Source of the DNA: Eledone cirrhosa
Taxonomy: Eukaryota
NCBI GenBank assembly: GCA_964016885.1
Contig: OZ024742.1
Location: 350,982,001-351,046,000 of the forward strand
Length of the DNA: 64,000 bases
Reading direction: 5' to 3'
Of the stretch, positions 51,939 through 52,317 are shown piece by piece (within the stretch, counting starts at the first letter, position 1; each line of letters opens with the position of its first letter). The notes beneath the pieces are model-generated. The model was given only the letters and a program-made list of their open reading frames with translations, made no database searches and was not told the origin of the DNA. The position numbers and the translations under genes are program-made.

Positions 51939-52317
51939 TATAAAGAAAAAGGGATGAAATCGAAAATGCAACTGAAGTCTTATTTTTTTTAAAAATATAT
52001 ATATTTATTTGGTTCCTTTACCGGTTTCGCAGTTTTTCTGCTTTTCAAAAGGTGAGTTGAGATGGAGGGTCTGTGGTTTTTCTCACATCTGAGAATGAGA
52101 ATGAGATGTGAGAAAAACCACAGACCCTCCATCTCAACTCACCTTTTGAAAAGCAGAAAAACTGCGAAACCGGTAAAGGAACCAAATAAATATATATATT
52201 TAATAAAAAAATAAGACTTCAGTTGCATTTTCGATTTCATCCCTTTTTCTTTATACTTCCACTCGTGTAGGACACCTCGGTTATTTTTCATTTTGTAAAA
52301 AAAACCTCACTTTCTAA
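51939..52317. mobile_element. Family A near-perfect palindrome (arms ~150 bp) plus tail
   Basis: Centre ~52097. The arms are almost identical. Confidence 0.9.
52142..52179 (+). ncRNA. Minimal type I HHR with U3-A8 core (family A); mirror copy at 52014-52052 (-)
   Basis: CCUU-UUGAAAA-GCAG(AAAAA)CUGC-GAAA-CCGG-UA-AAGG. Stem III is the palindrome ACCGGU. Confidence 0.85.

Follow-up and report, generated by a model that had tools for sequence, protein, structure and literature searches.

A U3-A8 hammerhead motif in the pseudo-LTR of a putative Neptune-type Penelope-like retrotransposon of Eledone cirrhosa

Introduction

Hammerhead motifs whose 3-8 pair reads U-A have been described before, both among natural examples in general and within Penelope-like elements. 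Perreault et al. 2011 present several natural U3-A8 hammerheads and report that swapped 3-8 pairs are active in vitro (PMC3088659). Cervera and De la Pena 2014 described U3-A8 in the Cercyon elements of Schistosoma and built a descriptor for it that returned about 1,300 hits (PMC4209133), the supplement of that paper including an S. mansoni (4) motif with UUGAAAA. According to passages of the same paper, the minimal Penelope hammerhead of Schistosoma cleaves at a low level and only as a dimer. A passage of Craig et al. 2021 (PMC8557442) calls the role of Penelope hammerheads unclear.

The motif described here lies in a 64,000-nucleotide stretch of contig OZ024742.1 of Eledone cirrhosa (the window) and is a further example of the published U3-A8 Penelope hammerhead. 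It shares with the S. mansoni Cercyon hammerheads, as presented in passages of PMC4209133, the type I topology, a short stem I, G10.1-C11.1, a palindromic stem III, a pseudo-LTR location and U3-A8. It differs from the Cercyon motifs in that A9 adjoins stem II with no extra base, as well as in a 4-bp stem II, a 6-nt palindrome and A17 in place of U17, and further in a Neptune-type carrier, about ten times more copies and the existence of a sister family with C13. The natural U3-A8 hammerheads of PMC3088659 display the same compensatory swap as the motif described here; section 8 of that paper gives its U3-A8 examples without a tie to Penelope, and its text does not mention A13C.

The carrier resembles elements of the Neptune clade, as characterized in passages of PMC8557442, in its RT, CX2-5CxxC linker, C-terminal GIY-YIG domain and partial tandems, and also in its inverted truncated arm, one-sided tail and 3' hammerhead, while its tail is longer (~60 nt compared with 30-40 nt). 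Non-LTR retrozymes (bioRxiv 10.64898/2026.07.22.740005) contain type I hammerheads related to those of Penelope pseudo-LTRs, as found here. The passages describing them refer to non-coding head-to-tail tandems, which contrasts with the coding units and inverted stubs of the present element.

Results

Layout and detection of the motif

The motif at 52142-52179 of the forward strand (38 bases) reads CCUU UUGAAAA GCAG-AAAAA-CUGC GAA ACCGGU A AAGG and is, by its sequence, laid out as a minimal type I hammerhead with U3, A8 and a palindromic stem III (Table 1). The core of the family to which it belongs, termed family A, comprises a U3-A8 Watson-Crick pair, GAAA and GUA, and stems I and II, including G10.1-C11.1, are complete in this copy. 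A minimal hammerhead with this GUA had been proposed in a sequence-only reading of the window, and both the sequence layout and a descriptor search bear it out. Family A lacks the unpaired base that commonly, although not universally, separates A9 from stem II in minimal Penelope hammerheads, and the close relatives L126, L129, L130 and L137 lack it as well.

The heptamer UUGAAAA occurs 35 times in the window compared with 14.4 +/- 3.8 in shuffled sequence. Rfam covariance models applied to 52120-52200 returned no hammerhead match, the sole match being MALAT1 (E=1.6), and for the whole 64-kb window no hammerhead is present among the 150 of 334 matches listed. The Rfam microRNA and MALAT1 matches score under the gathering thresholds and were dismissed as similarity due to hairpins or chance. 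The earlier expectation that searches for CUGANGA miss this family is correct, the core being UUGAAAA, and extends to the Rfam models.

Table 1. Coordinates of the hammerhead motif, related insertions and other features. Positions refer to the window unless a locus is named.
Feature	Position	Strand	Remarks
Stem I	52142-45/52176-79	+	family A motif
U3 U4 G5 A6 A7 A8 A9	52146-52	+	family A motif
Stem II	52153-56/52162-65	+	family A motif
G12 A13 A14	52166-68	+	family A motif
Palindrome ACCGGU (stem III)	52169-74	+	family A motif
GUA	52173-52175	+	predicted cut after A17 at 52175
Identical hammerhead in inverted arm of the same insertion	52015..52052	-	descriptor, BLAST
Inverted, 5'-truncated pseudo-LTR arm	51943..52090	-	ends ~80 nt past cut site, adjoins (TC)n(TA)n; BLAST, end alignment
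Short spacer, palindrome centre	52091..52103	.	
Direct arm	52104..52316	+	last ~70 nt before cut site and ~140 nt after, then (TA)n
Second palindromic family A insertion	46172..46524	.	two intact motifs; descriptor, BLAST
Motifs of the second insertion	46236-46271; 46359-46394	-; +	3-bp stem I, G-U in stem II
Third family A insertion	2122..2729	.	both motifs damaged; position 3 at 2223 (-), 2550 (+)
Truncated insertion of sister family B	56817..57168	+	motif 57022-57057
CUGANGA cores of other repeat families	1698, 15787, 24562; 23959	+	
CUGANGA cores of other repeat families	23784, 15488; 6232, 10293	-	
Slippery heptamer U UUU UUA	L060:5293-5203 (G000:C3)	-	also L231, L125, L126, L129, L132, L095

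Copies in the window

A descriptor in which positions 3 and 8 were left free identifies four U3-A8 motifs in the window, with position 3 at 46268(-), 46362(+), 52048(-) and 52146(+). Its 17 remaining rows comprise 14 overlapping matches at one (TA)n-adjacent site and three single matches judged to be chance. BLAST reveals seven homologous arms, all seven with UUGAAAA, in agreement with the seven motifs counted previously; they do not constitute one family, however, as the copy at 57022 belongs to a second autonomous family, termed family B, whose usual core is GCAA. Four insertions, the one at 51943-52316 and the three further ones of Table 1, hold all seven motifs, and three of the four have inverted arms. 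The four intact copies reported earlier were all recovered by the descriptor but represent two insertion events, and thus fewer independent witnesses than had been counted. Damage in the third insertion is private to each motif, with A13G and a broken palindrome at 2223(-) and a stem II mismatch and A14C at 2550.

The family B motif retains U3-A8 and carries GCAU/AUGC in stem II, the family-wide C13 and a private A12. Its U3-A8 and compensatory stem II stand as previously read, the latter being fixed in family B, but it displays ACAA where GAAA is expected. Since it carries both A13C and G12A, this copy cannot be counted as evidence that the core has been maintained.

The insertion that holds the motif at 52142 is a dead stub, truncated at its 5' end. 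At 51943-52251, folding back of the two arms into a 150-bp hairpin is predicted, with an energy of about -253 kcal/mol and with the whole motif paired to its own antisense copy; such a hairpin would sequester the motif, which would thus be unlikely to fold if transcribed through. The direct arm includes a ~60-nt tail found at one end only. A splice-donor look-alike in the antisense arm (AAG|GTGAGT) was dropped, about half of the copies reading GTAGAG. A hairpin, CUC-GUGU-nnn-ACAC-CUC, is observed at window 52258-52277 and in the matching family B tail (L076), and is kept in the tails of both families ~60 nt upstream of ORF1, with differing loops.

Other repeat families of the window contain CUGANGA cores in hammerhead-like context (Table 1), in one of which stem II is apparently closed by a U-U mismatch. 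Decayed Penelope-like ORFs of other families extend over 53232-55064 (-), 19335-20270 (-) and 5536-11804 (-); a 610-aa frame among them is, by eye, like the Hydra rows of Fig. S1 of PMC8557442.

The carrier element

The genome was searched with a query comprising the motif and flanking sequence, which yielded 749 candidates. In one of these loci the sequence runs on upstream to the last part of a GIY-YIG frame; a search with this upstream part gave copies at 98-99% identity, and the sequence reaches full-length, ORF-bearing copies at 97-99% identity. A natural full-length copy, L060, encodes a 400-aa ORF1 and a 775-residue RT, CxxxxCxxC linker and GIY-YIG frame, and tandem copies of the element are present at L047 and L049/L050. 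The unit measures 4,660 nt (4.66 kb) from cut to cut, with the predicted cut located 1,051 nt after the stop of the RT-Zn-linker-GIY-YIG frame and 169 nt before the ATG of ORF1 in the next unit. The motif occupies the pseudo-LTR of a Penelope-like element.

The RT is followed by a C-terminal GIY-YIG endonuclease, as in Neptune elements. Pfam recognizes GIY-YIG with 27.7 bits (cut-off 22.6) and RVT_1 with an E of 1.5e-6, just below its cut-off. The linker and endonuclease, CGRSNCGTC ... CKGC ... H, display the Neptune linker length and CCHH motif when compared by eye with the rows of Fig. S2, the last His being Tyr in L060 and His in L049; in both regions the element looks, by eye, like the Neptune rows of Craig et al. 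The closest protein relatives of the element are 56-74% identical. ORF1 has no Pfam match, and its atlas matches to gag-like clusters score 0.82, under the 0.9 threshold.

Judged from these features, an autonomous, young and putatively Neptune-type Penelope-like retrotransposon carries the motif as its pseudo-LTR hammerhead; that an element family was built on the motif, as in the sequence-only reading, is an overstatement. The copies in the window are the usual 5'-truncated stubs of this element, composed of an inverted arm and a direct arm, the latter longer by a 60-nt tail and both arms lying in (TA)n, and passages of PMC8557442 and PMC3846280 describe such an inverted truncated arm and tail for Penelope elements.

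ORF1 and the RT frame overlap in -1 phase, and the heptamer U UUU UUA is found there in register (Table 1). It is present in all seven family A copies and all three family B copies in which the junction is covered; among 46 relatives examined for a slippery site, the same heptamer occurs in five and an in-phase G GGU UUU/C in 14. Downstream of the site, folding revealed no conserved hairpin or pseudoknot that could act as a stimulator, z-scores being below -2 in only 2 of 11 cases and +1.5 in family B. U UUU UUA is likely, on sequence grounds, a programmed -1 frameshift site, which sets off ORF1 in this element; that ORF1 may be frameshifted in Penelope-like elements is already provided for in the legend of Fig. 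1 of PMC8557442.

Families A and B across the genome

The exact 34-base motif of family A has 11,141 genome copies, while the reversed control has none. Position 3 varies in 63 copies, all of which keep A8, so that C3-G8 occurs in none of the 63, and a base other than A is found at position 8 in 42. Variants at positions 3 and 8 of 0.4-0.6% would be expected from mutation after insertion. U3-A8 is fixed in family A, and the proposal that the swap is family-wide holds at the scale of the genome. Four contig runs compared with the pseudo-LTR gave no variant of at least 3% in L060:1916-1947, a result of little weight, the comparison excluding L060:1874-1915 (the motif's last five bases), which was skipped as repeat.

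Many of the first 100 genomic motifs listed form close inverted pairs. Rare core variants are shared by the two arms of an inverted insertion at each of C17:32853221/32853352, C22:8519587/8519695 and C4:262303140/262303230 (G000), which suggests a single template molecule for the two arms.

The RT frames of families A and B are 53-55% identical in their longest matches, and identity over the RT frame is 62%. Family B comprises 4,016 exact copies with C13 and 88 with another base, of which 27 have A; it lacks the A13 of the canonical GAAA and has thus spread without the canonical core. Its stem II double change to GCAU/AUGC is fixed, and its stem I contains U-A pairs only. Family A, the larger and younger of the two, has kept every core base. 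Between the two families the motif is identical at 30 of 34 positions, in contrast with 31 of 50 in the upstream and 17 of 50 in the downstream flank (48/100 for the flanks together; Fisher p 3.6e-5), and is conserved beyond its flanks. The 3-8 pair and the unpaired U4 G5 A6 are retained in both families, and the palindrome ACCGGU is identical in family A, family B and the C3-G8 relative L126.

The 3-8 pair in relatives

The swap was examined in 120 loci that contain an RT relative, identity in the best segment being 25-49%, with positions 3, 8, 13 and, in one run, 17 left free. The 27 distinct sense-strand motifs comprise 15 with C3-G8, 10 with U3-A8, one with U3-G8 and one with A3-U8. Positions 3 and 8 are a pairing combination in all 27, and A13 is likewise present in all 27. 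The opposite strand gave only two matches, and shuffles gave ~2.3 per replicate with all classes taken together. The motif of family A occupies the same position in its element as the C3-G8 hammerheads of the relatives.

An RT tree of 23 rows was built from families A and B and the 21 relatives in which a motif lies no more than 700 nt downstream, the other 99 loci being left out. The U-A label changes at least three times on well-supported branches, is no more clustered in the 23-row tree than in shuffles, and is absent from the nearest rows, L126 and L130, which are C-G. The covarying 3-8 pairs and the repeated changes of label indicate that the swap is real and recurrent and is not special to family A. 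U3-A8 had been regarded as a known but uncommon swap; it is indeed known, having been published in 2011 and 2014, but is common in these relatives. None of the 10 U3-A8 relatives has A17, compared with two of the 15 C3-G8 relatives, a difference that is not significant (p 0.5).

Among individual relatives, L199:3327 has its A3-U8 core downstream of a Penelope RT frame, and U3-G8 wobble cores are located downstream of Penelope RT frames in L187:5508, L193 and L194. The loci L081-L124, from genome bins labelled bacteria, hold Penelope-like RT frames and hammerheads; these Penelope sequences are probably animal host DNA.

Predicted folds and insert ends

In the predicted fold of the isolated motif, pair probabilities are 0.84-0.88 for stem I and 0.99-1.0 for stem II, and in one longer L060 context the minimum-energy fold retains stem II and loses stem I. 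ACCGGU would permit a dimer through a palindromic stem III: the co-fold of two copies is predicted at -20.3 kcal/mol in a double-hammerhead layout, with intermolecular ACCGGU pairing of 0.92-1.0. In a tandem the dimer partner is ~4.7-5 kb away. The predicted probability that U3 pairs with A17 is 0.67 for the monomer and 0.54 for the dimer. An inhibitory C3-G17 pair is known from older hammerhead literature, and U3-A17 is its analogue. The predicted U3-A17 pairing and the spread of family B with C13 suggest that cutting may be weak.

The 107 aligned 3' ends, a sample mostly chosen with queries spanning the cut, fall at +66 to +80 (41) and +129 to +148 (59) relative to the cut; five of the remainder continue into ORF1 and two lie elsewhere, one being a family B copy that diverges at +2. 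Twenty-four copies of this sample were obtained with an upstream query, and none of these ends at the cut. Junctions of 5' ends number 85 near the cut and 69 at a control site, with substitutions accounting for 8 of the 29 and 3 of the 12 places inspected. A second, unmatched comparison gave 105 and 18, the 105 being inflated by single-A deletions and (TA)n joins. Together the 5' junctions near the cut amount to <2% of the exact-motif count. No signature of the cut site is visible at the insert ends. Cleavage followed by a circular or template-jumping intermediate would likewise go unrecorded there, and thus the end data weaken cleavage and do not refute it.

Discussion

By descent the motif is almost certainly a Penelope hammerhead, and family A probably still cuts at a useful rate. 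The reading that we favour, with moderate confidence, is that slow hammerhead cutting, taking place only in the ACCGGU-paired dimer, trims unit-length RNA from tandem read-through transcripts. Two copies would pair via the palindrome to form a double hammerhead, and the paired hammerheads would cut slowly after A17, releasing RNA of unit length. Pairing of U3 with A17 would extend stem I and damp cutting. This slow, dimer-dependent trimming is taken as the likeliest reading on account of the published slow cleavage of dimers only and the activity of swapped 3-8 pairs in vitro; we infer the dimer dependence, the low activity and the processing role from the literature.

Alternatively, this hammerhead descendant may be kept mainly as a non-cutting RNA signal, for palindromic dimerisation or RT recognition, with cleavage negligible or dispensable. 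Functions besides cleavage are left open in passages of PMC4209133. Such a signal is consistent with the amplification of family B with C13, where every distinct relative motif has A, and with its U-A stem I, with the predicted U3-A17 pair and the lack of A17 among U3-A8 relatives, with the ACCGGU common to A, B and L126, and with the lack of insert ends at the cut. A13C would be expected to cripple hammerhead catalysis. Against such a signal, Lunse in 2017 reportedly found that Penelope hammerheads cut in spite of changes to the core; family A, the larger and younger of the two, retains all core bases; the kept 3-8 pair and unpaired U4 G5 A6 would be superfluous to a signal for dimerisation only; and the A17 contrast lacks significance. 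We regard a signal of this kind as possible but on balance unlikely. Somewhat more doubtful still is the proposition that the U3-A8 swap itself turned the hammerhead down, with U3 clamping A17, family B having lost A13 and nevertheless reached thousands of copies, insert ends bearing no sign of the cut, and Penelope needing the fold or palindrome rather than the chemistry. If it were true, families A and B would be naturally matched for a study of the function that hammerheads serve in Penelope elements.

Short length, lack of coding sequence and palindromic form in the window copies, together with the frequent close inverted pairs among the first 100 genomic motifs listed, recall a stand-alone, non-autonomous element, either a retrozyme or a MITE-like hairpin, defined by its ribozyme. 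The coding copies largely refute this very improbable reading, since the sequence runs upstream into them at 97-99% identity; moreover, 5' ends are variable and 3' ends fixed, no short head-to-tail tandem motif units were found in the window, and the inverted truncated arm with a tail is the layout described for Penelope. Chance resemblance of an A/T-rich stretch to a hammerhead, which would accord with an A/T-rich heptamer in an A/T-rich window and with the absence of an Rfam hammerhead match, is the least credible explanation of all, being refuted by the covariation and opposed by the element position shared with C3-G8 hammerheads of relatives, the excess conservation between A and B and the compensatory change in stem II.

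No literature report of a family-wide A13C was found, although supplements, figures or the 2017 work of Lunse may contain one; passages of PMC6155905, PMC11014351, PMC6765202, PMC5408684 and PMC3846280 hold nothing on changes of A13. The U3-A8 family itself changes little, as the variant is in print and descriptors have existed since 2014. Screens based on CUGANGA or Rfam nevertheless undercount such motifs, here by >11,000 copies in one genome. With the autonomous family A retaining a complete core and its equally autonomous sister family B carrying C13, the genome offers a cheap test of whether cleavage matters to Penelope-like elements.
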